This document shows positions 1-64,000 of a stretch of 64,000 bases of DNA, one piece after another (position 1 is the stretch's first letter; every line of letters begins with the position of its first letter). The position numbers were made by a program, and so were the translations under genes. The notes under the pieces were generated by a model that did no database searches, was not told where the DNA came from, and was given only the letters and a program-made list of their open reading frames with translations. The stretch is from a virus, in the IMG/VR virus record IMGVR_UViG_3300008954_000020, positions 38,579-102,578 of that record. The stretch is one strand, 5' to 3'.

Positions 1-593
1 GGAAAGTGTTTCATGATTAATTCTGCAAGAACCTTGTCGTTGTATTCGATATTTTCAGTTTCTAAAATTAACTTACATCTATCAAAAACCTGTTCTGCAA
101 GAACCTTTTTCTCTTTGCCGGGAATACGAAATTCTACAGTTGTACATCGTGAATGTAAAGGTTCGATGATTCTATTTTTAAAATTGCATGTTAGAATAAA
201 TCGACAGTTCGATGAGAACTCTTCAATAAATCCACGAAGTGCGGGTTGGGTTGACTGTGCATTTGAATAATCAAATTCATCAAGGATGACTACTTTTTGT
301 CCACCAGCAATTGAAACCGTACTTGCAAAGTTTCGAATCTTTGTTCGAAGGGTATCAATATTACCATCCTCGGAACAGTTAATTAGAATATAATCTAACT
401 CAAGTTCATGACACAGTGCTCGAGCCACTGTTGTCTTTCCACATCCTGCACCGCCCGACAAGAGAAGATTTTGCATCTCTCCTGAATTAATAATTTCTTG
501 AAATGTTTCTTTAATAGAATAAGATAGAATGCAATCTTTGACTCTTTGAGGACGATATTTTTCGACCCACAAAGTGTTTTCAATAGTTTTCAT
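1..593 (-). CDS. gp44: Clamp loader large subunit (AAA+), 3'-truncated by window edge; missing from ORF track
   Basis: Manual translation from ATG at 593: MKTIENTLWVEKYRPQ...LLLSGGAGCGKTT...VVILDEFD...QPALRGFIEEFSSNCRFILTCN...PLHSRC (WVEKYRP, Walker A/B, SRC motifs); directly follows gp45. Confidence 0.95.
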   Translation of the reverse strand, partial: MKTIENTLWVEKYRPQRVKDCILSYSIKETFQEIINSGEMQNLLLSGGAGCGKTTVARALCHELELDYILINCSEDGNIDTLRTKIRNFASTVSIAGGQKVVILDEFDYSNAQSTQPALRGFIEEFSSNCRFILTCNFKNRIIEPLHSRCTTVEFRIPGKEKKVLAEQVFDRCKLILETENIEYNDKVLAELIMKHF

Positions 594-594
594 A

Positions 595-1287
595 TTATTC
601 TCCGTAGTGAGAATCAGATTCCATAGCAATATAATACTTCAAATCGATTGATTTGTGATTAAATTGTGATACAATCTTTTCTGTGATACTTACATCATAA
701 TCGCCGGGAAGGATTTTAAGATTTTCTACCTTGAAGTAAAATTCGAAATCCTCACTTGTTCCAAGTTCGCCCAAATCAATAGAGTAACTATTACTGCCAC
801 GGTCAGCCTTATCCAGAGCAACAAGTTGTAAAACCTCGCCGTCATTTCGGACACAGATATCAGGAACCTGAAGAACTGCAGCCGCCTTTTGGATTTCATT
901 GAATTGTTTTTGAGTTAATTCAAAAGAAACAACAGGTTCCGGCATATTAAGTTCTTTTGTTGCTGACAACAAAAGCGATGGGTCAGAATAATGATATCGA
1001 ACAGATGCACCACCGCTTTCACTGATGGTCACATACTTTTCTTCAAACATCAATTCGGGATTATTAAATAATGAAATAGTTCCAAGGAACTTGTTCAAAT
1101 CCCAAACGCCAAACGGAATATCAAAATCTTCAGACACAGTTGCTTCTGCCATGATATTTTTCATGGGAGATAATGTCTTGATTGTATTTCCTGTTTCGAC
1201 CAGAAGGTTCGTATTAATTGTTGCAAAGTTTTTGAGAATGTCGAATGTATTTCGACTCAATTTCACTGTATTCATAGTTGTAGTCAT
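595..1287 (-). CDS. gp45: DNA polymerase sliding clamp
   Basis: KLSRNTFDILKNFATIN, FGVWDLNKFL, FKVENLKILPGDY, YYIAME; upstream of gp44. Confidence 0.95.
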   Translation of the reverse strand: MTTTMNTVKLSRNTFDILKNFATINTNLLVETGNTIKTLSPMKNIMAEATVSEDFDIPFGVWDLNKFLGTISLFNNPELMFEEKYVTISESGGASVRYHYSDPSLLLSATKELNMPEPVVSFELTQKQFNEIQKAAAVLQVPDICVRNDGEVLQLVALDKADRGSNSYSIDLGELGTSEDFEFYFKVENLKILPGDYDVSITEKIVSQFNHKSIDLKYYIAMESDSHYGE

Positions 1288-1506
1288 TCACCAATCCTTA
1301 TCTAAGGTGTCTCCATACCAATCGTTTATATCATCGAGGTCTTTGGAACTACGCAAGTTGTTTCCATAGTCCTTAAAATCTCGAAGTATATGTTTAGTGT
1401 CCTTCCGCTTTCTTCGGGACTTACTTTTCTTTTGACTACGAGCCGAACTAATATCATAATAATCTTCGTACTCGTTGTGTGTTTCTTTTTTGTTTTTCTT
1501 ACTCAT
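1288..1506 (-). CDS. Small basic hypothetical protein
   Basis: Lys/Arg-rich ORF; likely ATG at 1506 downstream of a sigma70-type promoter; abuts gp45. Confidence 0.6.
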   Translation of the reverse strand: MSKKNKKETHNEYEDYYDISSARSQKKSKSRRKRKDTKHILRDFKDYGNNLRSSKDLDDINDWYGDTLDKDW

Positions 1507-1524
1507 CTCAAATATCACGCATGT

Positions 1525-1552
1525 ATTTTACCACAAATACACAAGATGTCAA
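1525..1552 (-). promoter_or_regulatory. Sigma70-type promoter for the gp45/gp44 unit
   Basis: TTGACA-N16-TAAAAT with TGn extended -10. Confidence 0.75.
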
Positions 1553-1579
1553 GTGTATTATTTTGTATTTGTGTGGGCA

Positions 1580-2413
1580 TCAAACAAACTCCTGAATGTT
1601 TTCCATAAGGTTCCGCAATCGTTTTTCAATAAAGTAAGAAAGGATTTTACTTCCATCAGTTTCGGTAGTTTTATTGAACTGAGAGAGTACTTCTTCTTCT
1701 ATGTAGGAGGGAATCATATTAAGATTAATCATCCTATTATTTCTATCATAGTTTCTATTTTCTGTCCACTTATGTAATTCTTCTCGAATCATTTCTGCCT
1801 TTTTATTTCCACATCCCGTTTGTCGTTTTCCTTCTGTCACGAACACATCATCATCTGAAAGGATGTTGGGTATACCATCTGATGCATCACCCTTTATGAT
1901 ATGGTCTACAAGAAATCGTTCGGGGTCACTACAAACCAAAAACGATTTCTTCAACGGACTGTATTGTTTAACATTAGGATATCGCTGTAATTGTTGAAAA
2001 TCTTTGTCGTTTGAAACGATAACAATATTTTCTTGCAGATGATATTGTTTTGCAAGGATACCAATAATGTCATCTGCTTCTGCTCTGTCCACTGTGATGT
2101 TTTTGAATGGAAATATTTCTTCTACTTCTTCACGAATCGTATTCAAACATTTATAAATTACATTCCAGTCAAACTTAGATTCTTTTTGGTCTTTCCTGCG
2201 ACTAGCTTTATAGTGTGGGAATATATCTCTTCGCCAACAATGCGGAGAGTCGTTTGCAATTACAAGTTCGCCATACTTATTCTTGAATTTATTTCGATAC
2301 ATTCGATATGTGTTCAATACTAAATGCCTAAGAATATCTTCATCAACTTCTCCATTACGAATGGTTGTAAAAATAGCTGCTAAAATAATTTGGTTGTTAT
2401 CAATAATAATCAT
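1580..2413 (-). CDS. rnh: RNase H / 5'-3' flap exonuclease (T4 Rnh family)
   Basis: MIIIDNNQI, WRRDIFPHYKASR, EADDIIG, SNDKDFQQL, GDASDGIPNILS motifs. Confidence 0.95.
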   Translation of the reverse strand: MIIIDNNQIILAAIFTTIRNGEVDEDILRHLVLNTYRMYRNKFKNKYGELVIANDSPHCWRRDIFPHYKASRRKDQKESKFDWNVIYKCLNTIREEVEEIFPFKNITVDRAEADDIIGILAKQYHLQENIVIVSNDKDFQQLQRYPNVKQYSPLKKSFLVCSDPERFLVDHIIKGDASDGIPNILSDDDVFVTEGKRQTGCGNKKAEMIREELHKWTENRNYDRNNRMINLNMIPSYIEEEVLSQFNKTTETDGSKILSYFIEKRLRNLMENIQEFV

Positions 2414-2814
2414 TTCTTTTTCTTCTTTAGTTTTTTCTTGCCTCGTTGAACAGCATCATGAAAACATTTTAGTTTTTGGTCTGCGTGGCTTCGCATCCAA
2501 TTGCGGTCTTCTTTGTTGCCATTCGATTGCATCCAAAAAGCCAGTTCTATTAGAAATTCACTTCCTTCAACATATTTTCCATTAAAGAAAACTCGTACCC
2601 GAAGGTCTTTCCCCCGTTCAAAAAATGGATAGTCTTCTTTGGGTGCTAGTTTATATGTACGAATTGAAAATTTCGAAGAGATAATTTCCAGACCGGCTTT
2701 CATATACTTCTCGTAAGATAATGATGTCTTAGGAGAAACTCCACTCGTCCACTCTCGTTCAACCTTTTTTGATTGAACTTTCTTTTTGGTCTTTTTCTTG
2801 GTTTTGTTTTTCAT
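2410..2814 (-). CDS. Basic hypothetical protein
   Basis: 134-aa ORF with 4-nt overlaps to both gp46 and rnh; Lys-rich termini. Confidence 0.65.
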   Translation of the reverse strand: MKNKTKKKTKKKVQSKKVEREWTSGVSPKTSLSYEKYMKAGLEIISSKFSIRTYKLAPKEDYPFFERGKDLRVRVFFNGKYVEGSEFLIELAFWMQSNGNKEDRNWMRSHADQKLKCFHDAVQRGKKKLKKKKK

Positions 2815-4532
2815 AACATTTTGCTGAAATTATTTTGTTTTTCAAAGGTCATTTGGTTTGGAAATTTATCAGCCAATTGATCTGATTTGTGGCTGATTAC
2901 GAATATATTACATCTTTGACTTAAAGAATGTATCAATTTTAAAAATTCTTCTGTACCAAAAGCATCGAGCGACGAATCAAATACTTCATCAAGAATTAAA
3001 AGATTTGTATTTGCACTATTCTTTAATCTAGCAATTTCTCGCCATGACAAAAGAAGTGATAAATCAATTCTCATTTTTTCTCCTTCGCTAAATGACATGT
3101 AACTAAAATCGTCACGGTGTCTGCTCTTGATGGTTTCATTGAATTCTTCGTCTAATGTAAATTGAGCAAAGAAGTCCATTGAAGCCAAATATTTGTTGAT
3201 GAGTTTATTCATCATAGGAAGATAGTGTTTAATGATTTTTGATTTGATACCGCCATCCTTTAACAACGAAGTGGCAATATCATAATAATACAAATCTTCA
3301 ATTCGTTCTTTCTTTTCTTCCTGTTGTATATTCATATTTTGTTTGTAGGTTGTGAGTTTTTCAGTTTCACTTTTGATTTGGTCTTGGTCTTTTTTAATCA
3401 GTTCAGTTTGTTCTACTAATTTTTCCATATACCCAACGGCTGCACTAACCCACCCATTCTTAGAAGAAATGTCATCTTCCAATGCAGTAATTTCAGAAAG
3501 TTTGTTGTCTACTGTAATGGAATGTTCTTGTATTTCTTCGTAATGAACAGCAAGTTCTTCCATTGCATTTTCAATTTCAACCAACTTATCTTTCTTCCGT
3601 TCAACAGTTTTAATTACATTGGTATTTGATTCATCAATATCTTGTGTACAGGTGGGACAAACTTCATTCATTTCAAAGAATAAAATGCCCTCTTCGGCTT
3701 TTCTTTTATTTGATCCTAGTTGTTTCTTTAGAACTTCAACCCTTCGAATCTTTGATTGTAAATCACCATACGATTTTATTTCTTTTCGTTTGTGGTCTGA
3801 TGTTAATCTCAAGTCTTCGATTTTGGTTTGATGGTTTTTAATTTTCTTCTTGGTTTCTAATATTTCTTTTTCGTTTTCTGCGGAACTTTGTTCTGATTTC
3901 TTAGATACATTTTCGATATGAGATTCTAGTATTTCGATTTTTTCTTTTAGAACTTCGATGTTAAATATAATCTCTCTGTGTTCTTCTCGACAAGTTGATA
4001 TGTGGGTTTTAAGAATCGTATTCATATCAGAAAAGATATTGATATCCAGAATATCTTCAATAACTCCACGCCGGTCTGATGTACTTAATTGCATAAAAGG
4101 AACAAAGGACGAACTACCTAAAATCACAACTTGTGTAAAAGACTTATAATTCATTTTTAGAATTTGGTCTTCCAACATTCGCTGATAATCTTTTGTCTTG
4201 GCATTTTGGTCGAATAATTCCCCGTTTCGATAAATTTCAAATTTCTTGGGTTTTATACCTCTGATAATTTTATATGAATCATCACCAATTTCAAACTCTA
4301 CTTCCACCCACAAGTTTTTCTTGTTTATACTGTTAACCAATTGCGGAATATTAATTTTTCGAAATGGTTTTCCAAATAACCCAAAGGTGATAGAATCTAA
4401 TAATGCAAAAGATTTTCCATGACCGTTATTCCCTGATACAAGAGTCATAGAATGTCGGTCTAATTGTATTTCTGTAACAGCGTTTCCGAATGAACCAAAG
4501 TTTCGGAAACGAACTTTCTTAAAATTTATCAC
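2811..4532 (-). CDS. gp46: Recombination endonuclease ATPase subunit (Rad50/SbcC-like)
   Basis: Walker A GNNGHGKS, CPTC zinc hook in coiled coil, FSEGEKMRIDL signature, LILDEVFD Walker B. Confidence 0.97.
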   Translation of the reverse strand: MINFKKVRFRNFGSFGNAVTEIQLDRHSMTLVSGNNGHGKSFALLDSITFGLFGKPFRKINIPQLVNSINKKNLWVEVEFEIGDDSYKIIRGIKPKKFEIYRNGELFDQNAKTKDYQRMLEDQILKMNYKSFTQVVILGSSSFVPFMQLSTSDRRGVIEDILDINIFSDMNTILKTHISTCREEHREIIFNIEVLKEKIEILESHIENVSKKSEQSSAENEKEILETKKKIKNHQTKIEDLRLTSDHKRKEIKSYGDLQSKIRRVEVLKKQLGSNKRKAEEGILFFEMNEVCPTCTQDIDESNTNVIKTVERKKDKLVEIENAMEELAVHYEEIQEHSITVDNKLSEITALEDDISSKNGWVSAAVGYMEKLVEQTELIKKDQDQIKSETEKLTTYKQNMNIQQEEKKERIEDLYYYDIATSLLKDGGIKSKIIKHYLPMMNKLINKYLASMDFFAQFTLDEEFNETIKSRHRDDFSYMSFSEGEKMRIDLSLLLSWREIARLKNSANTNLLILDEVFDSSLDAFGTEEFLKLIHSLSQRCNIFVISHKSDQLADKFPNQMTFEKQNNFSKML

Positions 4533-5593
4533 TGTGAAAGACTCTCCGTGTACAGGTCTTTAATTATCTTCTTCAACTTTCCTGTGTTTTCAATTTCTTC
4601 CATTGTATCAATCTCATTCAGAATAAGTGTCAGTGTATCCTTGGACATGTCAATAACATCCTCATCATCAATTTCTTGTTGAATTATGTCTTCAATAATT
4701 GTGAGATTGCCTACTTGTGCATTATACAGTTTATCTAAGAACCTGTCAAACAAATAAGGACTTCTTTTATATCTTACAAAAACTTTAACTTGCCCATTTT
4801 TATATTTTTTGAAATCGCCGGACTTAATCCAATCTTCGATTTTTTCTGATTCACTATCATCATAATCGATAGCATGAAACATCCGTAATGGGTTTTCAAT
4901 AAATTCAAGAGTTCTAGTTTCTGTATCAAAAACATGAAATCCCTTTCGGACATTTAAATCCGTAAAAGTAATTTGATACTGGGCTCCCAAATAATAAATG
5001 TTATCTTTATTGCTCTTTTGATGAAAGTGTCCAGACCAAACTTGTTCAAATCGTTTTAACGGTTTATCATCCATCCCACCATCATGTCTAATGCCGGGCA
5101 CAATTTCATAACCATTTAATTCAAAATGACCCACAGCAATAGGACATGCCGTAGAGTCCAATAACTTTAAACACTTGTCTTTGTTTGATTTATTTATCCA
5201 CGGAACCATAACAAAACCTTCTTTATCTAACCACAGTTCTTGTGGTGTTTCGATGATATTAAAGTTTTTGTAACGGTTACCTAACAATTCACGAACAGAA
5301 TTTAGTTCGTTAGTATTTTTGTAATAGGTATCGTGATTACCAAGAATAATATGAGTTTCTATACCGATATCTTCTAACGGTTCTAGAAATCTTTTTCTGG
5401 TATTATTAAGTGTATTGAAATTTACAAATTTCCTTCTGTCCATCAAATCGCCCAAGTGAAAAATAGCGTCTATTTTATTCTCTTGGATGTAGGGAAAGAA
5501 GGTTTCTTCAAAAAACTGAAAGAAGTAATCTGCAAATATTTGGGAGTCCGCTCGAGCCCCAAAGTGCGTGTCATTAATCAGTGCTATCTTCAT
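4529..5593 (-). CDS. gp47: Recombination endonuclease nuclease subunit (Mre11/SbcD-like)
   Basis: DTHFG, GDLMDRR, GNHD, GHFE, SGHFH phosphoesterase motifs. Confidence 0.97.
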   Translation of the reverse strand: MKIALINDTHFGARADSQIFADYFFQFFEETFFPYIQENKIDAIFHLGDLMDRRKFVNFNTLNNTRKRFLEPLEDIGIETHIILGNHDTYYKNTNELNSVRELLGNRYKNFNIIETPQELWLDKEGFVMVPWINKSNKDKCLKLLDSTACPIAVGHFELNGYEIVPGIRHDGGMDDKPLKRFEQVWSGHFHQKSNKDNIYYLGAQYQITFTDLNVRKGFHVFDTETRTLEFIENPLRMFHAIDYDDSESEKIEDWIKSGDFKKYKNGQVKVFVRYKRSPYLFDRFLDKLYNAQVGNLTIIEDIIQQEIDDEDVIDMSKDTLTLILNEIDTMEEIENTGKLKKIIKDLYTESLSQ

Positions 5594-6128
5594 TATCTAA
5601 AAACTCGTCTAGGCTTCCTTGCTTTTTTTTAGTTTTCTTTTTCTTTGGTTCGAACTTTTCAATATCTGTTGGAGACAATCTCATCATGTCTGCAATTGGA
5701 TTATCGCTATTTGTTCTGACCTTTAAATTTTCTTTAATTGAACCGTCAATATCGGTTATTTCCATCATTTTGTATTTGATGTAATTTTGTTTCTTTTCTT
5801 TTTGAATTCTACGCAGGAATGCATAATAAATTATTTGAGTAAAATATGAAAATGGATTTTTAGATTTATCAGGGTCGAAATTACTGCAATACATTAAACA
5901 GTTTTCGATTCCATCCCCTATCATTTCTTCTCGATAGGGATAATTTATAAAGTTTGGTCGCCAAGCCAAATTTGTTGCAATGTCAACAAAACATTTTCCA
6001 ATATATTCGGTAACAGGAGGTTTATCTTCCCCTTGTGCCTCAGCATTTTTTACTTGTTCTTTCCATTGTTTCATTGCCGCATAAAATTCTTTATTATCAA
6101 TATAATGATTTACTTTCTTTTTAGCCAT
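5574..6128 (-). CDS. gp55: Late-transcription sigma factor
   Basis: HYIDNKEF, PNFINY, MIGDGIENC, KSKNPFSYFTQIIYYAFLRRIQKEKKQ. Confidence 0.97.
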   Translation of the reverse strand: MAKKKVNHYIDNKEFYAAMKQWKEQVKNAEAQGEDKPPVTEYIGKCFVDIATNLAWRPNFINYPYREEMIGDGIENCLMYCSNFDPDKSKNPFSYFTQIIYYAFLRRIQKEKKQNYIKYKMMEITDIDGSIKENLKVRTNSDNPIADMMRLSPTDIEKFEPKKKKTKKKQGSLDEFLDNEDSTD

Positions 6129-6160
6129 GATTCATTCTAGAACCTCCTTCCATATCACAT

Positions 6161-6188
6161 AGTATACACCAAAAATGTACTATGTCAA
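6161..6188 (-). promoter_or_regulatory. Sigma70-type promoter for gp55-47-46
   Basis: TTGACA-N16-TATACT, followed by a purine-rich GGAAGGAGG Shine-Dalgarno-like run. Confidence 0.75.
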
Positions 6189-6217
6189 GTTTTTTTATTT
6201 AATTTTGAATTTTGTTC

Positions 6218-6245
6218 TTGCTTTGTGGCTTGCCAATGGTATTAT
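6218..6245 (+). promoter_or_regulatory. Candidate divergent (antisense) sigma70-type promoter
   Basis: TTGCTT-N16-TATTAT with TGn extension; same spacing as the other promoters; no + strand gene downstream. Confidence 0.4.
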
Positions 6246-6291
6246 CTCATTGTAGCCGTTTGTAGATTTAAATAGGTTGCCAGCCTTAAGG

Positions 6292-6924
6292 CTAGAGATA
6301 ATCTTTGGGGTCGATTGGCCAATGTCCATAATGATTTCCGAATTCATCGGGGTCATCAAATTTTTCTGGGCAATCGTCATCAAAGTCCCAATCATCTTGA
6401 GTGATTGTTTGTGTTTCATCGGTGTGTGCATCAATCAATGTCATTAAATCATTTAAAAAATCTTCAGTAATTGGCAATTGTAATTTATTCAATTTTTCCA
6501 TGATTGAAGCTTCATCCATTATGTCTCCCTCTTGATTTTTTATATCTTCTAAAAGTTCTGATAAATCTGCTTCTGAGAAGTTATTCATGGCATCTTCAAC
6601 CATTTTTGAGATTTCATTTTCTTTGAAAAGGCCGGGAGCATCGTCATGATTCATTCTGCGTTCATACATTTCTGTAATTTTTGGATCGGCAGTACTGGTG
6701 TGTAAAACACGGTTCTTTTCTATAGTTGTAGATAAATCTATTGAAAATTTCAACCAATCTCGAAGGAATATAAATTCCTTTGAATTCATGGGGTTTTCAC
6801 CCATCATAAATGCATTAATTGAATATGGTCTATTTACAGTATATTCTTTATCGTTTTCGGAAACTAGATTTCCGATTACGCTTTCTCCTGATAATAGTCG
6901 AAATATTACTGGGCCCTTTTTCAT
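6292..6924 (-). CDS. Conserved hypothetical protein (Sm-like N-terminus, acidic C-terminus)
   Basis: IFRLLSGESVIG start resembles the Sm-like protein found between uvsW and gp55 in T4-like phages. Confidence 0.7.
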   Translation of the reverse strand: MKKGPVIFRLLSGESVIGNLVSENDKEYTVNRPYSINAFMMGENPMNSKEFIFLRDWLKFSIDLSTTIEKNRVLHTSTADPKITEMYERRMNHDDAPGLFKENEISKMVEDAMNNFSEADLSELLEDIKNQEGDIMDEASIMEKLNKLQLPITEDFLNDLMTLIDAHTDETQTITQDDWDFDDDCPEKFDDPDEFGNHYGHWPIDPKDYL

Positions 6925-6927
6925 GTC

Positions 6928-8427: not shown

Positions 8428-8435
8428 TCCATTAG

Positions 8436-8443
8436 TATTTATG
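8436..8443 (-). promoter_or_regulatory. Late (gp55) promoter for uvsW
   Basis: CATAAATA just upstream of the uvsW start. Confidence 0.6.
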
Positions 8444-36083: not shown

Positions 36084-39000
36084 GTTACTGCTATTGCTCT
36101 CAAGTCCTTGACCATAGGATATTGGTTTCCCAGACCCGCTTTAGTTTGATACATCACAAACTTAACTTGGAATTGTCCAAATTCAGATTCTTGTGCAAGT
36201 TTATATTCAATCTCTCTAAATCCAGTTCCTTTTGGCGGTGTTGCGGTTGGAAGTATTCGTACCCACTTCTCTCTTCGGATACTAGTTTCTGATTGTTCTT
36301 CTAGTGTTCGTGCAAACACATGAATGTCTGTTCCAACAGGAACATCTTGTGTTAAAAATACACTTAGTCCCAGTGCATTAATGCCTTCTTCAAGAACAAC
36401 AGGGGATGTGATATACCTTACAAGTGGTGCATTATCGCCCCATGAGTTCGGTTCATATTCCCCGTTGTAGTTGCCGGAAGCGGCTGCAGATACTCCAGCA
36501 TTTGCCGTAACACCATTAATAAGTTGCTGGTCATAAACAACATCAAGATTTTTGTTATTATCAATGAGGTATTCCGTAACGCTTATACCCATTCGTTCAG
36601 CATCAATAACAGGACTTAAGAATTGTGACCCAGTAAATTTAATTTTATGAATTAATGATTGTTGACCTGATGAGGAGTCAGCTCCTTGTCCTGTTCCACT
36701 GCCGGATGAAAGAATTACAGATTTTCTTTCGTCCATGAGGGAAATCCCACCCTCTCTAGACGGTATGGTTTGATGAACATTAGAACCAAACTGAGCCACT
36801 GTTTGTACTAAAGTACTGTGTGATATACTTGTATCGCCCGGCGACATTTGTGTAAAGTTAGGTTGAAGTTCATGGAATCGTTGATGTCTATATGTGCCAC
36901 TTCCTTCACCACCTTCGATGGTGTGGAAATGATTTGTAGCGACTTCTTCAAGAGTTCCAAGGTCAGCAGATAAATCTAATGAACCTTCCAATCCAGATGG
37001 TGTGAAATCACAGATGGAAAATCGGAAACACATGTCTGAATTTTGGTCGGCAGTCCAAGTACTTGCATTTTGTGACTTAAAGAATGAACCCGTATATGGT
37101 TGTGCTGTAATTTTAGTACTGCCCAAGGTTCCATCACTATTCAGTTTATATTCGCCCATTGTCGAATACCAAACTTCATATTTGTCACTATTGGAAATAA
37201 CTACAATGCAATATTCTCCAGGCGTTAGATATACTGGAGTTGAGAAATTGAATCTGGTCTTGTCGGTGCCCGATGCAGTCCAATCTGTTTTCGCAACACA
37301 ATCAACGGGGTCAAGAACAACCTTCGACATAGGAATATGTTCGCCCGAACTCGGATAACCATTTACCATAGGACGAATTTCTACCGAAACTGGTAAACTT
37401 TCGTCTATCTGTGCAAAGAACAAATCGACACTCTTTGCAAAGACACCATTTGGATATTCGTCTGCACTAATCATAATAGATTGTGCGACCGGATCAATCC
37501 ACCTTCTTGTCGTGTTGCCAACTTCTTGCCATCCAGCATCTGTTCGCTGTACCCGAGATCGTCGGACTGATGTAGTAACACTTGTTGCTTGAACAACCTG
37601 TAATAATCCTGTTGCCGTATATTCGGCATCAGCAAAAGTTGATTCAAGTTGTGCAGAATTGCCTTCGTGGTCAGTTAATTTGAATTGTCTTCCACCCGTT
37701 CGGAAATCTCCAGCAGGCAAGTCAAAATGAAGTCCAATCTTGCCGTTTCCGTCTGTTGTTAGAGCACCACCTAAATCACCAGTGATATCTCCGCCGAGTG
37801 CTTCTGTAAGAATACTAGCCCGACCACTACCATAACTAGCAAGAGTACAATATTCGGTCACGGCTTGTCCATCGAAGAATGGATATACTCTTGTATTTGG
37901 CCTTAGTCCAGTTGCTGTGATTCGAATATTCTTTGCTCGCATGAAAGGAATATTTGAAGTTTCAACAACTCTGTCGCCCAAATTCATTGTAGTGTTCGTT
38001 GTACTTTCAGTGGTCTGAAATCGTTGGGTTCGGACAGAAGCCATTCCATCCATTGTTCGGTTGCTTGTTCGTCTTTCTTGCACTTGTACAGACCCAGAAG
38101 GTAGATTGAATTCGTTGAGAGCTGCCTGTCTTGCTGCAATCTCAGCAGTAGTGGTTTGTTGCTCAGTCCACCAATTCCTGCCCCACCAGTTGCCTCGGTT
38201 GTTATTCAAGACGGCTGCTCGGGCAGCTCGGGCAGCTCCGGCCGCCTGATTGAGGGAACCGGCAACACCAGCGACCGTGAGATTTGTGCCTGCAACAACA
38301 GTTCCCAATTGGTCAGTAATGTTTGCAAGGCCCTGTACTCTAGCATCAATAGTTTGGGATAAAGCTTGGGCAGGTAATCGTGTTGTGTCAGTCCATGTAT
38401 CTGTTTCTGGTCGGAGTTTAATATCACCTGTGAAACTAACAACATTATAGGGATTAACACTAATTTTTGCAGACCTAACCACTTGCTCGATGAGGTGTAC
38501 TCTGCTAGAACTTAATACATAACAATCATCATCCGTTAATACTAATCCTTCAATAGAACCTTTTTGTACTAGATCAACATTATCAGAAGCCTGGGGGCAA
38601 TATGCAGCATTCATCATATCATCAATCAGAATATTATAGTCAGGATTGGTTGCATCACCAATATTATGACCTGTAAATGGGTCTACCAAAATACCATTTT
38701 TAAATCGTGGAAGACCGTTTGCATCTACTATCATAGAATTTTCGGCACTTTGTTCCATCAAAGACAAAGCAGTATAATATTCCATCCTATCGACTTTAGA
38801 TTTAATCTTACCAATGTCTCTCATAGTATATCGTTTGTTGTCTTCGATGTTTACACGAATATCATTGATGTGGTAAACATAAGGAGGAATACTAATAGTT
38901 GCTAACAACATTCCATCTGTAACTGATTCGGGCCTCCGTCTTCGTACAGAAGGCGTTCCTTGTACCAATTTTAATACCTTGTCATTTCGAAGATACAGGA

Positions 39001-54707: not shown

Positions 54708-54713
54708 TTGTAT

Positions 54714-55163
54714 ATGGCATACAGAGGCAGATATAAAGTGAAGGATACCTCAAAGTATATTGGTAATCCCACTAAGGTTATTTATAGAAGCCTGTGGGAA
54801 CGCCGATTTATGGTTTATTGTGATACAACCGAAAGTATACTTAGTTGGTCATCTGAAACCATAGTAGTACCATATATTTCTCCTGTTGACAATAAACCTC
54901 ATAAATATTTTGTAGACTTCATTATAAAGTATCTAGGCAAAAATGGAGAGGAAATTACCACTCTGATAGAAATAAAACCAAAGAAGCAATGTAAAGCGCC
55001 ACCCAATAGAAAAAAAATTACTCGATCTTATTTAAAAGAAATGAGAACTTGGGAAATCAATAAGGCAAAATGGAAAACTGCAAACGAATTTGCCCAAGAA
55101 AGAGGATGGAATTTTAAAATCTTAACCGAAAACGATATCCTATTAGGAAAGAATAAAAAATAA
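54714..55163 (+). CDS. gp4: Head completion nuclease
   Basis: KYIGNP, YRSLWE, WSSE, YFVDF, EIKP, NKAKW, LTE. Confidence 0.93.
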   Translation: MAYRGRYKVKDTSKYIGNPTKVIYRSLWERRFMVYCDTTESILSWSSETIVVPYISPVDNKPHKYFVDFIIKYLGKNGEEITTLIEIKPKKQCKAPPNRKKITRSYLKEMRTWEINKAKWKTANEFAQERGWNFKILTENDILLGKNKK

Positions 55164-55843: not shown

Positions 55844-55852
55844 GGAGAATAC

Positions 55853-56743: not shown

Positions 56744-56759
56744 TTATTAGGAGATAATT

Positions 56760-57515
56760 ATGAGTTTACCTATTGTAAGAGCCCCGAAGTATGAGTTGAC
56801 TATACCATCAACCAAACAGAAGGTTAAATTTAGACCGTTCGTTGTTAAAGAAGAAAAAATTCTTCTTATGGCGGCCGAAAGTAAAAACCAAAAACAAATC
56901 GTAAATGCTTTGCGAGATGTCCTTGGTGCCTGTATAGACAGTGGAAAAGACAAACTGGATGTCATGGCTTTACCTACCTTTGACCTTCAGTACATCTTTT
57001 TGAAGTTGCGAGCAAAATCAGTTGGAGAACAAGTGGACTTAACAGTAATGTGTCCCAGTTGTGAAGCAGTAAATCCGGCCCAAGTTGACCTAACCGAAGT
57101 CGAAATTAACTATCCCGAAGGACATGTTACTGAACTTCAAATTACAGATGATGTTGGAATCACTATGAGATATCCAACATTCGAAATGTTGGAAAATAAT
57201 AAAAACATAGACACCGAAAATATAGATAATATAATTGAAATTTTGAGTATGTGTATCGAACAAATTTATGACAAAGAAAATGTTTACGGACGAAAAGATT
57301 ATACGGATAAAGATTTCCAAGAGTTTGTTTATTCGTTAACACAGAATGATTTAGTAAAGATGCAGGGATTTTTTGATACTATGCCAACTATGCAACACGA
57401 ACTTAATTTTACATGCGTCAAGTGTGAGGCAAAGGAACAGGTTATATTGCGGAGTTTGGATGATTTTTTTACATCGGACTCGCCCATGAGTCCCTCGCAA
57501 ACCTCTACAAATTAA
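56760..57515 (+). CDS. gp26: Baseplate hub assembly protein
   Basis: MSLP, YELTIPS, FRPFVVKEEKILLMA, FDLQYIFLKLRAKSVGE, CxxC pairs, FFDTMP. Confidence 0.93.
   Translation: MSLPIVRAPKYELTIPSTKQKVKFRPFVVKEEKILLMAAESKNQKQIVNALRDVLGACIDSGKDKLDVMALPTFDLQYIFLKLRAKSVGEQVDLTVMCPSCEAVNPAQVDLTEVEINYPEGHVTELQITDDVGITMRYPTFEMLENNKNIDTENIDNIIEILSMCIEQIYDKENVYGRKDYTDKDFQEFVYSLTQNDLVKMQGFFDTMPTMQHELNFTCVKCEAKEQVILRSLDDFFTSDSPMSPSQTSTN
57464..57493 (+). promoter_or_regulatory. Candidate -1 programmed ribosomal frameshift signal
   Basis: T-TTT-TTT heptamer (57464-57470) in the gp26 frame; GGACTC-gcccat-GAGTCC hairpin (57476-57493) 5 nt downstream. Confidence 0.65.
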
Positions 57516-57667
57516 ATTTTGAAATGATGCAACGATTCTATTATAGTTTAACAGAATTAGAAGAGATGATGCCGTGGGAGAGAGACATATATGTTAGTTT
57601 ATTGGAAACACATATTAAGGAAGAGAATGATAGGCAAAAGTCAGAGATGTCAAAGATGAAAAGGTAA
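57464..57667 (+). CDS. gp51: Baseplate hub assembly catalyst in the -1 frame of gp26; missing from ORF track
   Basis: FFYIGLAHESLANLYKLNFEMMQRFYYSLTELEEMMPWERDIYVSLL...KR*; first in-frame ATG only at 57524, with no RBS. Confidence 0.85.
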   Translation, partial: FFYIGLAHESLANLYKLNFEMMQRFYYSLTELEEMMPWERDIYVSLLETHIKEENDRQKSEMSKMKR

Positions 57668-57671
57668 TTAA

Positions 57672-59645
57672 ATGGCAGAAGAATCCAAAACCCTAATACA
57701 ACTCAGAGATGAGATGGTTAAGTCGAGAACCGACCAATCAAAAATTGGTGGGATGACTATCGCTGAACTTAAAGGTATGGGCGGCGGATTGAATAAATTG
57801 GTTGATTCTCTTAAAGATGGATTAAAGGCTGATAAGAAAGAATCCGCAGAGGATAAACGAAAAAATAAAGCAGAAAAAGAAGAACGAAGAGAAGGACGAA
57901 GTGAATTAAGAAATGCGCTTGCGGATTTGGGTGATGCATTCAAAAACGGATTTAAAAATATAGGAGATATTGCAAAACCGGCCGGCATTGGAAAGATGTT
58001 GGTTGGAATTGCTGGATTGCTTGCGGGAGCATTTATCGGATTCTTTGGTGAAATTAAAAACCGGCTGTTCTTGATATTGAAAATATTTGCATATCCATTT
58101 AAAGTATTGTTTCCTAAAAAGATAAAAGCCATATCTGAATTGTTTATGAAGGTTTTTGGAAAGAGTGGTTGGTTTGGTAAATTCTTCACAAAGATAGGAA
58201 CTATCTTTGCATGGATAGGAAACAAAATAAAACCTATTTGGAAGGTAATTAAGAGCGTCTTTGGATTTTTTGGAAGGATAGCAGGATTTCTATCACCAAC
58301 CCTAAAAGCACTCGGTGGTGGAGGTGGTGGACTTTTCAAAATGTTTAAACCATTAATGTCTACCTTTAAAGCTATGTTTAAAGTCGGAAAGGTTCTTGGT
58401 AAGGTTGTAGGAAAAATATTCCTCCCCATTCAAATAATTTGGGGAGTTGTAAAGGGATTACTGGGTGCCCTCGATAAATTCAAAAGCGGTGATATTCTTG
58501 GGGGTATAGGTGCCTTCTTTGGTGGTATACTGGATGTATTTACCTTTGGAATTATTGATATGGAGAAATTCGCCGATTGGTTCTCTAGTTTGTTCGGCAA
58601 TTTCATTGGATTCTTCGAAAAACTTTTCACTGGTGATATTCTCGGAGCAATAACCGACTTGGGTAATTTCCTTCTTGATTGGATGGTTGGATTGCCTGAA
58701 ATGGTATTCGATGGAATCTTAAATGCAATCGCTGGTGTCTTTAACTTCTTTGGATTAGATTCAATCGGAAAATGGTTCAGCGATTTTGCAGATGTAGATA
58801 TCCTTGGAACAATCAAAGGCTTCTTTGCTTCTATGATGGAATACATCGGCCCCGTAATAGATGGTATTTGGGATGTTGTGAAATCTGTCTTCGGTGCAAT
58901 ATACGATGGTTTCATGTGGATATGGGATAATGTTTATGTACCTTACATTATGTTTCTTAAAGATTTAATGATGAATATTTTTAGTGGAATCGGAACTGCA
59001 TTCACTTGGATTTATGACAATGTATTCGTTCCATACATTTCTACACTTGGTGACATTATGATGGCCGTATTTGGTGGAATTGGAGATGCATTGAAGTGGG
59101 TATACAATAATACAGTCAATCCTGTAATATCAGGAATCATGTATTTCTTCAACATGGTTGGGTGGGCCTTCGGTAAAGTAACAAATGCGGGAATGCATGT
59201 CCTGAATGGTCTTATTTCCCTTATTAATACAATTCCAGATTGGATAAAACCCGCATCATTGGAAGGATTAGAGAGTTTCCCAGTCGAAGATGCTGGCGAA
59301 TTCCCATCATTTGAAATGTTGCCGGGATTGAAGTCGGGTGGTATGGTAGAGGGTTTACAAGATGGACTTGGTAAACTTTTCCGTATGGGTGAGGGTGGTG
59401 ATGAAATGGTAACACCACTAGATAAATTGAAACCAAATATCATAGACCCCATCATGGCAAAAACTATGGCAATGATGCCAGCAATGGCAAACATGGGCGG
59501 TGGTGGTGTCGGTGGTGCTACAAGCCAAGTTACGGTTGTCAATGCACCTAACAACAGTCAAGCGGTTTCCCAGAGTTCCACATTTGCGAGTTCAATGACT
59601 TCAACAAATAGTGAAATCTCTCGTAAGTTGGATTTAAACCACTAA
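57672..59645 (+). CDS. gp29: Tape measure / baseplate hub protein
   Basis: 657 aa of amphipathic Phe/Trp/Gly-rich helical repeats, C-terminal GG/GEGG.E motif and VVNAP; follows gp26/gp51. Confidence 0.75.
   Translation: MAEESKTLIQLRDEMVKSRTDQSKIGGMTIAELKGMGGGLNKLVDSLKDGLKADKKESAEDKRKNKAEKEERREGRSELRNALADLGDAFKNGFKNIGDIAKPAGIGKMLVGIAGLLAGAFIGFFGEIKNRLFLILKIFAYPFKVLFPKKIKAISELFMKVFGKSGWFGKFFTKIGTIFAWIGNKIKPIWKVIKSVFGFFGRIAGFLSPTLKALGGGGGGLFKMFKPLMSTFKAMFKVGKVLGKVVGKIFLPIQIIWGVVKGLLGALDKFKSGDILGGIGAFFGGILDVFTFGIIDMEKFADWFSSLFGNFIGFFEKLFTGDILGAITDLGNFLLDWMVGLPEMVFDGILNAIAGVFNFFGLDSIGKWFSDFADVDILGTIKGFFASMMEYIGPVIDGIWDVVKSVFGAIYDGFMWIWDNVYVPYIMFLKDLMMNIFSGIGTAFTWIYDNVFVPYISTLGDIMMAVFGGIGDALKWVYNNTVNPVISGIMYFFNMVGWAFGKVTNAGMHVLNGLISLINTIPDWIKPASLEGLESFPVEDAGEFPSFEMLPGLKSGGMVEGLQDGLGKLFRMGEGGDEMVTPLDKLKPNIIDPIMAKTMAMMPAMANMGGGGVGGATSQVTVVNAPNNSQAVSQSSTFASSMTSTNSEISRKLDLNH
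58887..59156 (+). repeat. Three tandem 90-bp (30-aa) repeats in the tape measure gene
   Basis: VFGAIYDGFMWIWDNVYVPYI.../IFSGIGTAFTWIYDNVFVPYI.../VFGGIGDALKWVYNNTVNPVI... Confidence 0.8.
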
Positions 59646-59646
59646 T

Positions 59647-59681
59647 AAAAAACCCCCCGCCGAAGCAGGGGGTTCTTTTTT
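59647..59681. terminator. Bidirectional rho-independent terminator between gp29 and the porin gene
   Basis: A6-CCCCCCGC-CGAA-GCAGGGGG-TTC-T6 between convergent genes. Confidence 0.9.
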
Positions 59682-59698
59682 AAGTATTTAATTGTCTA

Positions 59699-60841
59699 TC
59701 AGAATTGAATCTGAAGTTGGGTACGAACGAGGTACTCGCCTTCGGCGGCACTTGCATTCCATCCCGTGCTGGCAACATCCCAACCCGCATCAATATCATT
59801 CATGGCATAACCGACATCGGTTGTCCACTTAACATTGGGGTTGACCATGTAGTTGACACCTACAGTTGCGACACTAAGGTCTGCTGTAGCGCCTTCCAAC
59901 CTGCCAAATTCATATGCAACGAAACCCTGAAGGTTATCCATGCACTGATAAGAAACAGTAAGGGTAGTTGCCCAGTCATCTCCCGCATCACGGTTTACAC
60001 CGACATATGCAGCAGTGAGGTCAAGAGCACCCCAATTGACGCCAGTATCTACAGTATAAGTTGTGTAGTTACTGTCTACAAGGTCATTCCACGAAACCGC
60101 AGCACCAAGATTCCACCAAGAGGTGACATCATAATCTGCTCGTGCAGTAAGGGCATATCCATTCTGGATGCCGGCACCGTTTGCGGTGTCGAATCCATCA
60201 GTGTATGCACCACGAAGCGTAAGTGCTCCGAAGTCCTTACCGAATTGGATACCTTGTGACCGGCCTTGGCCGAAGGTATACGAAACAATTGACCTATCAG
60301 CGGCAAGTGTATCAGTTCGTGATACAAGAACTTCCTTCATGAAGGGAGCCTTGAACTGACCAAACTGGAAGTCAAGACCACCAATTTCACCAGTACCATA
60401 AGCGTCCTTCAATTCGAAGTCACCACCATCGCTCCATTGACCACTTACTCTATAACCGAAGTCATAGACATCACCACTAAGGATGAGTCGTGAGCGAGGA
60501 ACACTGAAACCATGATTGGCATCGGTATCTCCACCACCACTGTAGTCGAAACGAGTCTGTACAAATCCGTGTACATTAACCGTTACAGGGCTTCCGTTGC
60601 CCTGAAAACTAGCACGATTGTCTGCATCAGCAAGAACATCGTGAACAAGTTGACGAGTCGCTTCGGCTCGTTCGTTGTTCAACCAGTTATCACTATCCGA
60701 TGCAGATAGTTCTGCAATCCGTGCTTCGGCTGCTTCAAGTCGTTCTTGAAGTTCCGCATTGGTGTCAGCACCAGCAACACCAGTGCAGATTCCTGCAAAT
60801 AGTGCTACGAGAGCCACCTTTGTAAGTTTTGAGATATTCAT
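59699..60841 (-). CDS. Outer-membrane porin (OprO/OprP-like), host-derived
   Basis: Signal peptide, N-terminal coiled coil, GFVQTRF, RSRLILSG, GQFKAPF, RSQGIQ, alternating beta-strands, C-terminal YLVRTQLQIQF beta-signal; AGGAG RBS. Confidence 0.85.
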   Translation of the reverse strand: MNISKLTKVALVALFAGICTGVAGADTNAELQERLEAAEARIAELSASDSDNWLNNERAEATRQLVHDVLADADNRASFQGNGSPVTVNVHGFVQTRFDYSGGGDTDANHGFSVPRSRLILSGDVYDFGYRVSGQWSDGGDFELKDAYGTGEIGGLDFQFGQFKAPFMKEVLVSRTDTLAADRSIVSYTFGQGRSQGIQFGKDFGALTLRGAYTDGFDTANGAGIQNGYALTARADYDVTSWWNLGAAVSWNDLVDSNYTTYTVDTGVNWGALDLTAAYVGVNRDAGDDWATTLTVSYQCMDNLQGFVAYEFGRLEGATADLSVATVGVNYMVNPNVKWTTDVGYAMNDIDAGWDVASTGWNASAAEGEYLVRTQLQIQF

Positions 60842-60869
60842 AGTGAATCTCCTTTACTTTGAAAGCGTA

Positions 60870-61043
60870 TCAAACGCTAGCGACAAGGTTCCAAAGTTCA
60901 CGAACTGCTCCACCGAGCCAAGTAACACCGTTCCACGCAAATGGAAGAAGTGCCAATGTGATTAGCATACTACGGCACACACCGACCTTACCTAACGCAT
61001 TTGTCACGACATCTGTGCCGCAACTATCTGTACATTTAGCCAT
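60870..61043 (-). CDS. 57-aa putative membrane peptide; missing from ORF track
   Basis: MAKCTDSCGTDVVTNALGKVGVCRSMLITLALLPFAWNGVTWLGGAVRELWNLVASV; strong AAGGAG RBS. Confidence 0.75.
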   Translation of the reverse strand: MAKCTDSCGTDVVTNALGKVGVCRSMLITLALLPFAWNGVTWLGGAVRELWNLVASV

Positions 61044-61069
61044 TGTATTTCTCCTTTTTTAGAAATAAT

Positions 61070-61150
61070 CCTCTGGCAAAAGAGGTTGGTGCGTTTTTGC
61101 ACCGTGAAGTCAACTCCGACTTCGTTAGTTTATGTCACTTATTTAGTGAC
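61070..61150 (-). promoter_or_regulatory. Structured 5' leader of the porin operon (four hairpins)
   Basis: Stems at 61134-61150, 61106-61123, 61088-61103 and 61070-61085; the first has a TAAATA late-promoter-like core over its loop. Confidence 0.6.
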
Positions 61151-61157
61151 TTTTAAA

Positions 61158-61201
61158 AATTGACACCCCACATTATACACCTAATATGCGGGGTGTCAAT
61201 T
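61158..61201 (-). terminator. Long inverted repeat: gp32 terminator that also contains a sigma70 promoter
   Basis: AATTGACACCCC/GGGGTGTCAATT arms plus U tail; contains TTGACA-N16-TATAAT (61172-61199). Confidence 0.75.
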
Positions 61202-61217
61202 AAAATTTTAATTATTT

Positions 61218-62117
61218 TCAATCTTCGGAAGCAAGCTTTTCGAAGTACGAAAGGGCGTCTTCACCCTCAGTAGTAGTAGTTTCGGTAGTAGTATCATCAC
61301 TCTTACCGAATGCTTCTTCTGCCATGGCTGCACCATCAGACACATCAGCATCTTCAGCAGTAGGAGCAATAGTAGTATCTACATCCTTACCAAGAACGGT
61401 TTGAAGTCTATCCTTCAATTCGTCATAAGTTTTGAACTGGTCATCAGCAATAAACTCATTAAGGTCAGTCTGTGTCTTCCACAATTCTTCCAACTTATCA
61501 TCATCACCATCAAGTAGTGCAGTAGACGAATCAAACTCACTCTTGTCGTAGTTGATAAATCCAGCAACCTTGCGAACCTTAAGACGGAAGTTTGCACCCT
61601 TCCAGAAATCGAATGGATTTACTGGGGACTCATCTTCAAACTCAGGATTCATAGATTCCATAATCTTATCAAAAATCTTCTTACCAAACTTATAGAGAAA
61701 AACCTTGCCCTCATTCTCAGGGTTCTTGGGGTCACTCAAAACCATAATATTTGCAATGTAAGTAAGACGGCGCTTTTGCTTACGGGCAACATCTTTGCCC
61801 TTTTCAGTACCAGAATTCCACAACCTACTGTTAAGTTCTGAAACTGGGTCTTTTTCGCCACGGGTAGTGAGAGAATTCTCAATATACCAGCCGCCTGGCC
61901 CTTGGAAACCGTGATTCCAAACACGAACCCACGGAAGTTCGGCACCTTCTGATGCAGGCAAGAAACGAATAATAGCAAATCCGTTTGATGCATTGTCAAG
62001 TTCTGGACGCCAGAATCGGTCATCCTTGTAAGACTTCTTTGTATCGTTCATTTCTTCTAACTTCGTCTTAAGAAAGTCAGTGTTACTTGAACGCTTTTTC
62101 ATATCGTTGAAACTCAT
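61218..62117 (-). CDS. gp32: Single-stranded DNA-binding protein
   Basis: DDRFW, AIIRFLP, HGFQGPGGWYIENSLTT, GKVFLYKFGKKIFDKI, FDFWKGANF, NYDKSEF, acidic tail; start ATG 62117 after AAGGAG. Confidence 0.97.
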   Translation of the reverse strand: MSFNDMKKRSSNTDFLKTKLEEMNDTKKSYKDDRFWRPELDNASNGFAIIRFLPASEGAELPWVRVWNHGFQGPGGWYIENSLTTRGEKDPVSELNSRLWNSGTEKGKDVARKQKRRLTYIANIMVLSDPKNPENEGKVFLYKFGKKIFDKIMESMNPEFEDESPVNPFDFWKGANFRLKVRKVAGFINYDKSEFDSSTALLDGDDDKLEELWKTQTDLNEFIADDQFKTYDELKDRLQTVLGKDVDTTIAPTAEDADVSDGAAMAEEAFGKSDDTTTETTTTEGEDALSYFEKLASED

Positions 62118-62167
62118 GCAGTATCTCCTTATATTTCTGAATATAGTTTTCGTATTACGATGTGTAT

Positions 62168-62195
62168 ATTTTAACATATATTTCATATATGTCAA
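62168..62195 (-). promoter_or_regulatory. Sigma70-type promoter for gp32
   Basis: TTGACA-N16-TAAAAT, followed by an A/U-rich unstructured leader. Confidence 0.75.
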
Positions 62196-62211
62196 GCATT
62201 ATTTTTGCGAT

Positions 62212-62430
62212 TTAAATTGGTAGTTTTGCGGTGTCTGGTAAGATATTCAAACCTAGACCTTCGTTGTGTAATTTATTAATAATTGATTTTGAAAGATATT
62301 TAGAAGCAAGTGCGGGTTCTATGCGATAATGTTCACATAGACTAAGAATCGCTTCAATATATCCATCTCCCATTGTCTCAACTTTATCTTCTACTTCTTT
62401 TGAAAATTCTTCGGGGGTTAATTCTAACAT
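62212..62430 (-). CDS. gp33: Late-transcription coactivator
   Basis: FSKEVE, YIEAIL..CE..IEP, LN.LP...KLPI. Confidence 0.85.
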   Translation of the reverse strand: MLELTPEEFSKEVEDKVETMGDGYIEAILSLCEHYRIEPALASKYLSKSIINKLHNEGLGLNILPDTAKLPI

Positions 62431-62446
62431 TGTATTTTTCTCCTGT

Positions 62447-62454
62447 TATAAATA
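62447..62454 (+). promoter_or_regulatory. Late promoter for the 72-aa + strand ORF
   Basis: Canonical TATAAATA. Confidence 0.6.
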
Positions 62455-62499
62455 AGGGTGGTATGATATGTAGGTCACTAAATTTAAGGGGAACCCAAT

Positions 62500-62718
62500 A
62501 TGAGTAATGCTAATCACGGAGTTGCGTTTAGCGCATCGGTCGATTTAAATAAGGCTGGTATGAAGGGATTTATCATGGCAGCGGATGGAACTATTCGACT
62601 TCAGTTTGCCGATGGCACAACAACTGATATTGTTGTGAATAAAGGCGTTCAATATAACATGAATTTTGATGCGATTCTTGCTGCCGGCACCACACAGGCC
62701 GGTACTGCTCTTTATTGA
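62500..62718 (+). CDS. Small hypothetical late protein
   Basis: 72 aa, own late promoter and AAGGGG RBS; beta-rich, Gly/Ala/Thr-rich. Confidence 0.6.
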   Translation: MSNANHGVAFSASVDLNKAGMKGFIMAADGTIRLQFADGTTTDIVVNKGVQYNMNFDAILAAGTTQAGTALY

Positions 62719-63374
62719 TTGTGTTTTCTGTAATTAACAATGGTTTTGTGTAGTTTATCTACATAATCCATTGGATTTGCAACAAACACTTGATTATCAC
62801 CAGTATCACAAGAAATTAAGATCACGATATTCTTTATCGGGGTCTTTGTTCTTTCTTGGAACATAATAGCGTATGCAGTTGCTTGTTCGTAGTAATTTTG
62901 TATATCTGACTTTCTTTTGGGTTTATTTGAACCCTTGAAGTCGATAATAGACAATTCACCATCAAATTCAGCAATACAATCCACTCGTCCTGCGAGTTTT
63001 AGGGTATGTGACCATAATGGTTTTTCTAAACCAACAATATTGTCAATTCGGTGTAAATCATCTGCTAATTGATAAAACAACTGTGAGTCTGTAGATTCTG
63101 CTTCTGCAAGATACGACTCATCGTTGCTTAAATAATTCTCTATGATTTTGTGTAACCGATTTCCCCGACTAAGAACTCGTTTAGATTCTTCGGGGTTTTT
63201 TCTACGCCATTCTGCAAAGAATGCTCGTTTCTCCCAACCAGTTACGGTAGTTACACTTGGGTAACTTTTACCTTCTGGTGTTTGATAGTATCGAGTACCA
63301 TCGGGATTTGTTTCGGCTTCTAATTCTGCCCATAAGGGACTTTCAACATGATTAAACATTTTATTCACTAACAT
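62712..63374 (-). CDS. PD-(D/E)XK exonuclease
   Basis: RYYQTP, YPSVTTV, RGNRLH..IENYL, AGRVDCIAEFDGELSIIDFK, YYEQATAYA. Confidence 0.9.
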   Translation of the reverse strand: MLVNKMFNHVESPLWAELEAETNPDGTRYYQTPEGKSYPSVTTVTGWEKRAFFAEWRRKNPEESKRVLSRGNRLHKIIENYLSNDESYLAEAESTDSQLFYQLADDLHRIDNIVGLEKPLWSHTLKLAGRVDCIAEFDGELSIIDFKGSNKPKRKSDIQNYYEQATAYAIMFQERTKTPIKNIVILISCDTGDNQVFVANPMDYVDKLHKTIVNYRKHNQ

Positions 63375-63393
63375 AATAAATCTTTCCTATATT

Positions 63394-64000
63394 CTACCAG
63401 TTCTTATTAATAAAGTCAAGCAATTTCTTTTCGTCATCAGAAATTGACATTCTCGCTCCTGTTCCTAAGTTATCTGCATGGGGAGTTTCATAAACAGATT
63501 CTTTGATACCAAAACTCTTCTCAAACTTCTTACGACTCTTCTCGTCCTTGAACTTGATATTCACGGTATACTTCTTGTAGTCACCACTAAGACCAAATTT
63601 AGCAATCATTCCCTTAGTCAACGCCGATGTACCTGCATCCATCAGTTTTTCATATTCTTTTTTATCTTTTGCTTGATAAAGTCGTTCGACATCCGAGGGA
63701 TGAGTATCTTTCTTATATGAACCTTGTCCTGTTCGAACTAGTGGAATTGATTCTGCTTCATCTACTTCATTGGATTCATCATATGGGCCATATCCCTTGG
63801 GTGTAACCTCAGAAGTTGAATGAGAAAATTCACCTTTGTTCTTGTGTGCATATTTCCCAATTGCTTTTTTGTGCATGTCCTTGGTCATACCAGTAATAAC
63901 GACTCTATACTTACCCTTGTATCTTTCGACACCTTTGTTTGCTAGTCCCACGGCAGAATTCTCAACATCCTTTGCAAATTGTTTTGCATCTCGTTCACTT
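63394..64000 (-). CDS. Hypothetical protein, 5'-truncated (possible internal head protein)
   Basis: Frame stays open from the annotated GTG (63951) to the window edge (SERDAKQFAKDVENSAV...); highly charged. Confidence 0.6.
   Translation of the reverse strand, partial: SERDAKQFAKDVENSAVGLANKGVERYKGKYRVVITGMTKDMHKKAIGKYAHKNKGEFSHSTSEVTPKGYGPYDESNEVDEAESIPLVRTGQGSYKKDTHPSDVERLYQAKDKKEYEKLMDAGTSALTKGMIAKFGLSGDYKKYTVNIKFKDEKSRKKFEKSFGIKESVYETPHADNLGTGARMSISDDEKKLLDFINKNW

Follow-up and report, generated by a model that had tools for sequence, protein, structure and literature searches.

Phages reportedly purge the recognition sites of host restriction enzymes from their genomes, an avoidance said to have been described by Sharp in 1986 and Rusinov in 2018. 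Bacillus phages such as SPR encode multispecific 5-methylcytosine (m5C) methyltransferases whose targets include GGCC, CCGG and CCWGG. Two further systems alter bases in short motifs. The Mom protein of phage Mu, a GNAT enzyme, produces N6-carbamoylmethyl-adenine in SAS motifs of double-stranded DNA by way of Gly-tRNAGly (PMC13219725). The DpdA systems of phages CAjan and iggy introduce motif-restricted, partial 7-deazaguanine modifications (PMC7544227, PMC10484667); a first-pass annotation of the DNA considered here had cited dPreQ0 at GA and GGC motifs in CAjan, and this precedent is correct (PMC7544227). Here we analyse a stretch of 64,000 nt (the window), which corresponds to bases 38579-102578 of the linear 102,578-bp IMG/VR contig IMGVR_UViG_3300008954_000020 from an uncultured marine T4-like phage. 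We describe a rule that governs which CCGG, CCNGG and GGCC sites survive in it, together with a gene, g047, that might be responsible.

The pattern resembles ordinary avoidance in that ACGT, CGCG, CGWCG, RGATCY, GGWCC and many hexamers have been purged outright, but differs from it in that the surviving subset of other sites is set by a single flanking base and is enriched two-fold. As with the SPR-type methyltransferases, one phage enzyme would cover the same set of host-enzyme sites; those proteins, however, mark whole sites, with neither flank dependence nor residual avoidance, and no C5 methylase gene is found here. The CAjan and iggy systems would share with the mark proposed for this phage its partial, motif-restricted nature, in CAjan including GGC, with HaeIII (GGCC) blocked (PMC7544227, PMC10484667). 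Unlike them, the contig and 11 complete genomes carrying g047 contain no TGT-fold (tRNA-guanine transglycosylase) DpdA, and GATC is avoided, so GA is not protected. The likeness to Mu Mom would lie in a single phage enzyme of GNAT fold acting after replication on double-stranded DNA in a three-base context, a role here proposed for g047, and in resistance to a broad range of type II enzymes, those with sites overlapping the motif. The g047 protein differs from Mom in its extra helical domains and in matching the Pfam family DruA/DUF4338 instead of the Mom family, and its putative context, GCC/GGC, lacks adenine, which would leave C or G as the target base. In a further difference from Mu, a true Mom-family gene, g016, is also present and does not track the pattern.

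Context of the surviving sites

The rule and the sites that illustrate it are as follows (window coordinates).

1-64000, no strand: CCGG and CCNGG only as GCC(N)GG or CC(N)GGC, GGNCC only as GGSCC, GGCC enriched
117-122, plus strand: GCCGGG, example of a tolerated site, in which CCGG and CCSGG are covered by the 5' G
6911-6916, plus strand: GGGCCC at a Gly-Pro codon pair (GGGCC at 6911, GGCCC at 6912), replacing GGWCC
37488-37493, plus strand (genome position 76066): ACCGGA, the sole unflanked CCGG of the whole contig

The window contains no GGWCC against 63 GGSCC sites, and none of its 59 CCNGG sites has the form HCCNGGD, in which the outer pair is not G:C. Only one of its 79 CCGG sites is unflanked. 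On the whole 102.6-kb contig the counts are 0 GGWCC and 124 GGSCC, 0 HCCNGGD among 80 CCNGG, and one HCCGGD among 112 CCGG; a 5' G or a 3' C is thus present at 80/80 CCNGG and 111/112 CCGG sites. In order to obtain expected numbers, synonymous codons were shuffled within each gene in 300 replicates, keeping every protein. For GGWCC, 74.0 sites (standard deviation 5.7) would be expected, whereas GGSCC, expected 52 times, is seen 124 times. The expectation is 85.0 for HCCNGGD (54 HCCWGGD and 31 HCCSGGD) and 96 for HCCGGD. The first-pass annotation had claimed that GGWCC and unflanked CCNGG were purged and that ACCGGA near 37488 was the lone CCGG exception. The full count bears out both claims, and five of the Gly-Pro example sites given there (6911, 11303, 13312, 18279 and 25623) all proved to be GGGCC or GGCCC.

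Flanked CCNGG and CCGG sites are enriched about two-fold over the codon shuffle; where the protein forces CC(N)GG, therefore, the adjacent codon is picked so as to give a 5' G or a 3' C. Among the CCGG sites of the contig, 55 have only the 5' G, 34 only the 3' C, 22 have both and one has neither. The two flanks act independently and one suffices. As any of the four bases may precede GCC, the minimal protecting context is GCC on either strand. A scan over spacings found the effect only at CC-N0/1-GG and GG-N1-CC.

The same context is apparent among palindromes of four and six bases, which were generated by script. None of the seven that contain GCC is depleted and most are enriched; relative to expectation, GGCC occurs 1.65-fold, CGGCCG 4.1-fold, GGGCCC 3-fold and GCCGGC 2.6-fold. 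Of the remaining palindromes, 25/70 are depleted at least four-fold, many of them down to zero. Such depletion of short palindromes, measured against a null that keeps both proteins and codon usage, is restriction-site avoidance. The contig has 1 ACGT where 212 are expected, 0 CGCG (54 expected), 5 CGWCG (79) and 1 RGATCY (88). GATC (85 seen, 335 expected) and AGCT (54 seen, 239 expected) have fallen to about a quarter of expectation. The hexamers GGTACC, GGATCC, AGATCT, GTCGAC, GTGCAC, CGTACG, TGCGCA and GCATGC are nearly absent. With ACGT, CGCG, CGWCG, RGATCY and a dozen hexamers purged, the phage must be under very heavy restriction pressure, and the near-absence of so many sites implies that the host population possesses a very large repertoire of restriction enzymes.

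The gene g047 and the distribution of the rule

About 250 related marine contig pieces (designated by L numbers) were surveyed. The rule applies to all three sites in the close relatives L003, L004, L083, L163 and L184, to CCWGG alone in, for example, L054, L071, L109 and L225 (19 flanked and 0 unflanked sites in L225), and to CCGG alone in L199 and L200. In the cultured phage S-SSM7, 65 CCWGG sites are flanked and one is not. Since GGWCC is retained in L019, L021, L087 and L165, all of which follow the flank rule, the avoidance of GGWCC is separate from that rule; GGWCC is, moreover, a common restriction enzyme specificity in its own right. The first-pass proposal that a modification of GGC/GCC shields overlapping sites is therefore kept below for CCGG, CCNGG and GGCC, whereas its GGWCC half needs no modification.

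The gene g047 lies 0.6 kb ahead of the window (contig 36834-37940, minus strand; L002:17834-18940) and encodes a protein of 368 aa. It is situated between the gp44/Cpn10-like gene and gp62, two genes downstream of gp44; in Syn9 the same gp44-gp62 gap holds Dam. The protein matches phrog_19197 over its full length (E 1e-141). By sequence it does not fall into the Mom family PF25680, as Pfam yields only DruA/DUF4338 (PF14236), and that marginally (27.4 bits against a gathering cut-off of 27, E 2.3e-6); a sequence search of the PDB gave no match. The core of an AlphaFold model built with 26 homologues (predicted local distance difference test score 83.7, predicted template modelling score 0.80) matches GNAT acetyltransferases in the PDB. 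A Foldseek search of a viral library with this model retrieved Mom of Salmonella phage FSL SP-031 (E 2.9e-3, target-normalised template modelling score 0.55), so that the modelled fold is a GNAT fold resembling Mom. DUF4338 has been termed a GNAT domain and is known from bacterial defence systems, namely Druantia DruA and DndF fusions (PMC10853773), and the g047 homologue of S-SCSM2R has been termed structurally Mom-like, on the basis of structure only (PMC12801897). As to the adenine that Mom modifies, the context read from the sequence here, GCC/GGC, contains none, and the surviving AGCT sites are not enriched for S flanks.

Homologues of g047 are present in 31 cultured phages. A short form of the family, which lacks about 22 residues around positions 300-322, is found in S-SM2, S-B68, SynMITS9220M01, S-CREM1 and S-SRM01; four of these five carriers show no CCGG avoidance. 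HTVC008M has a second, partial DUF4338 match at 86473-86970.

In order to find out whether gene and pattern occur together, g047 was sought by profile in 30 complete cyanomyovirus and pelagimyovirus genomes, and sites were counted in 60 kb of each. CCGG or CCWGG is restricted to flanked sites in 9/15 carriers and 0/15 non-carriers (p = 7e-4). CCGG is totally absent from one of the 15 carriers but from 14 of the 15 non-carriers (p = 3e-6), and GGCC counts are 11-166 in the former versus 3-12 in the latter (p = 4e-6). Eight carriers have only G/C-flanked CCGG (DSL-LC02, Sf-FS3, S-SCSM2R, S-8S53, S-PRM1, S-CAM9, S-T4 and S-CREM1), with 59 flanked sites and 0 unflanked ones when pooled; the ninth is S-SSM7, where the rule concerns CCWGG. 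Carriers and non-carriers share the isolation hosts WH7803, WH8102 and WH8109, and among these cultured relatives tolerance of GGCC and of G/C-flanked CCGG tracks g047, not the isolation host. The gene is the best correlate of the flank rule. It also emerges that marine cyanomyoviruses are almost universally devoid of CCGG and GGCC, which suggests that host enzymes specific for these two sites are widespread; we found no published description of this avoidance.

A proposed protecting mark and its alternatives

The sequence rule with its statistics, the association of gene and pattern, and the fold are established directly, and the pattern together with the link to g047 suggests a new sequence-specific DNA modification. 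The phage would mark its own DNA after replication within GCC (GGC on the complementary strand), and the middle C:G pair is the likeliest position. That a single flank is sufficient fits protection by a modification on one strand, and a mark on one strand would be enough to block host endonucleases at CCGG, CCNGG (both CCWGG and CCSGG), GGCC and possibly GGNCC. Selection would have removed those sites that are unable to overlap GCC, and where CC(N)GG or GGNCC is dictated by the protein, the choice among synonymous codons would have fallen on those that create GCC/GGC. The best candidate for the enzyme is the GNAT-fold, Mom-like DUF4338 protein g047, which by analogy with Mom would transfer an acyl group to an exocyclic amine, either cytosine N4 or guanine N2. 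We give a GCC/GGC mark made by the phage, with g047 as the candidate enzyme and CCGG, CCNGG and GGCC as the shielded sites, a probability of roughly 0.55.

Several observations weigh against this proposal. CGCG sites that touch GCC/GGC by one base are still absent (0 seen, about 10 expected); this absence gives weak support to the middle C:G pair as the site of protection. Aligned by hhalign with the profile of the phage's Mom family, g047 obtained a probability of 0.3%, which is not significant. The rule is lacking in six carriers, HTVC008M, S-SM2, S-B68, SynMITS9220M01, S-SRM01 and Sf-CH5, the last of which tolerates all CCGG sites while still avoiding GGCC, which means either that family members differ in specificity or that other factors are at work. 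S-SSM7 carries g047 but has zero CCGG, so that the mark would have to leave at least one CCGG enzyme unaffected. Avoidance is not seen in many metagenomic loci that bear g047, as is expected where restriction pressure is absent, but this constitutes no test. The association ignores phylogeny, was measured in 60 kb of each genome and takes account of isolation hosts only; the true agent might be a different gene linked to g047, and 43% of the phage genome lies outside the contig. We infer the existence of the modification, its base, its chemistry and its maker.

The main rival supposes no modification at all. Host endonucleases of the CCGG family would truly read HCCGGD and HCCNGGD (or HCCWGGD), with an outer pair other than G:C, and the phage would avoid exactly these words. 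NgoMIV, Cfr10I, Ecl18kI, PspGI and related enzymes do differ in how they read the outer base. The word is a palindrome, and a homodimer that needs two good half-sites would account for protection by either flank, while the restriction of the rule to CCWGG or to CCGG in some lineages is what separate enzymes would produce. We know of no enzyme specificity of this kind, however, and two or three such enzymes would be needed, all sharing the same odd exclusion at the outer base. Neither the rise of GGCC in the same genomes nor the way the pattern follows a phage gene when isolation hosts are shared would be explained. We regard this account as improbable, though it is the strongest of the alternatives.

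Somewhat less probable still is a conventional enzyme encoded in the remaining 43% of the genome, either an m5C or N4-methylcytosine methyltransferase with a short motif or a DpdA that places 7-deazaguanine at GGC. The contig is only 57% complete (CheckV), and CAjan DpdA does modify GGC and block HaeIII (PMC7544227). The first-pass annotation had named m5C methylases and DpdA as enzymes to look for, and the searches speak against both. The 102-kb contig contains no C5 methylase (PF00145), no N6/N4 methylase (PF01555) and no TGT/DpdA (PF01702). None of these turns up either in the 5 kb by which L083, a 94%-identical contig free of modification genes in that part, extends past the end of this one. 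C5 methylases and TGT are likewise missing from 50 related contigs, and C5 and N6/N4 methylases and TGT/DpdA from the 11 complete carrier genomes, nine of which show the rule. N6/N4 methylase matches do occur in some related contigs, but their distribution does not track the rule. FolE, QueD, QueE and QueC did not appear in Pfam scans of about 58 proteins, although no search was aimed at them. In addition, the phage has an S-adenosylmethionine lyase-like gene, the product of which would oppose any methylase dependent on S-adenosylmethionine.

Least probable of all is that a host methyltransferase, conserved and directed at a motif that includes GCC, leaves a mark that is carried between hosts, or that g047 is a mere lineage marker acting on proteins, for instance through acetylation of a host factor: GNAT enzymes do usually acylate proteins or small molecules, and DUF4338 does occur in Druantia DruA and DndF fusions (PMC10853773), but non-carriers isolated on the same Synechococcus strains avoid CCGG and GGCC, so that protection of this kind is not provided by these strains, S-SSM7, HTVC008M and this phage have unrelated hosts, and inhibition of a nuclease would relax avoidance everywhere, not only beside G/C.

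Other motifs and other genes of the phage were considered as well. Modification of every GpC is unlikely, as AGCT and CGCG contain GC and are nonetheless avoided. Methylation specific to GGCC or of RGCY type was rejected, the base ahead of GCC being free. The gene g016 (contig/L001:13536-14165, minus strand), outside the window between the DNA polymerase and UvsX genes, is a true member of the Mom family (PF25680, E 4e-22; phrog annotation 'Mom-like DNA modification protein'). It was rejected as the agent, since L004 has the rule without g016, and L012 and L031 have g016 without the rule. SAS-containing sites such as GTCGAC and GTGCAC are still absent, so any effect of g016 is invisible in the sequence. 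Also rejected was g022 (L001:18094-18603, minus strand), which encodes a protein of 169 aa with no Pfam hit and a match to phrog_15480 'methyltransferase' (E 2e-19), and which is found in relatives both with and without the rule.

Phage background and implications

Gene calling yielded 105 genes covering 97% of the contig. The T4-like myovirus genes include those for RegA, gp44/62, gp45, RNase H, gp46/47, gp32, UvsX/UvsY and a family B polymerase. This polymerase shares 51% identity with its counterparts in marine Synechococcus cyanomyoviruses and 60-96% with the enzymes of many uncultured marine contigs; megablast searches with the DNA of this phage matched no cultured phage. A phage porin, considered as a clue to the host, had no relative in genome_contigs. 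Two further features lie at the ends of the window.

3-629, minus strand: gp44 clamp-loader gene, truncated by the window boundary
62712-63374, minus strand: PD-(D/E)XK nuclease gene, directly upstream of gp32

The S-adenosylmethionine lyase-like gene (L001:6860-7546, minus strand; PF23780, E 6e-10), for which an anti-restriction role is possible, is found among relatives only in the closest ones, L003, L004 and L163. A glutamine synthetase-like gene of amidoligase type adjoins thyX and primase (L001:8522-9553, minus strand) and has homologues in a few related contigs (L036, L175, L176 and L180). Among related marine T4-like contigs, AGCT is wholly absent from dozens (L007-L039, L055-L066 and L084-L104), and GATC and ACGT are absent from some, in combinations that vary by lineage.

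If a GCC/GGC mark is indeed made by g047, a function would be at hand for a conserved gene of marine cyanophages and pelagiphages that has had no assigned role, and a new base or motif would be added to the known phage DNA modifications. More tentatively, DUF4338 (T4-GC 1216, DruA-like) may represent a second family of GNAT DNA-modifying enzymes, which would place an undescribed acyl- or aminoacyl-derived group on N4 of cytosine (or N2 of guanine) in GCC, with motifs that differ among members; DruA of Druantia might then employ the same chemistry in marking or sensing DNA, and the finding would offer a lead on DruA biochemistry in that defence system. The approach used here, in which surviving restriction sites and their context are examined and carriers of a gene are then compared with non-carriers, would mean that a modification motif and the gene behind it can be read from genome sequence alone.

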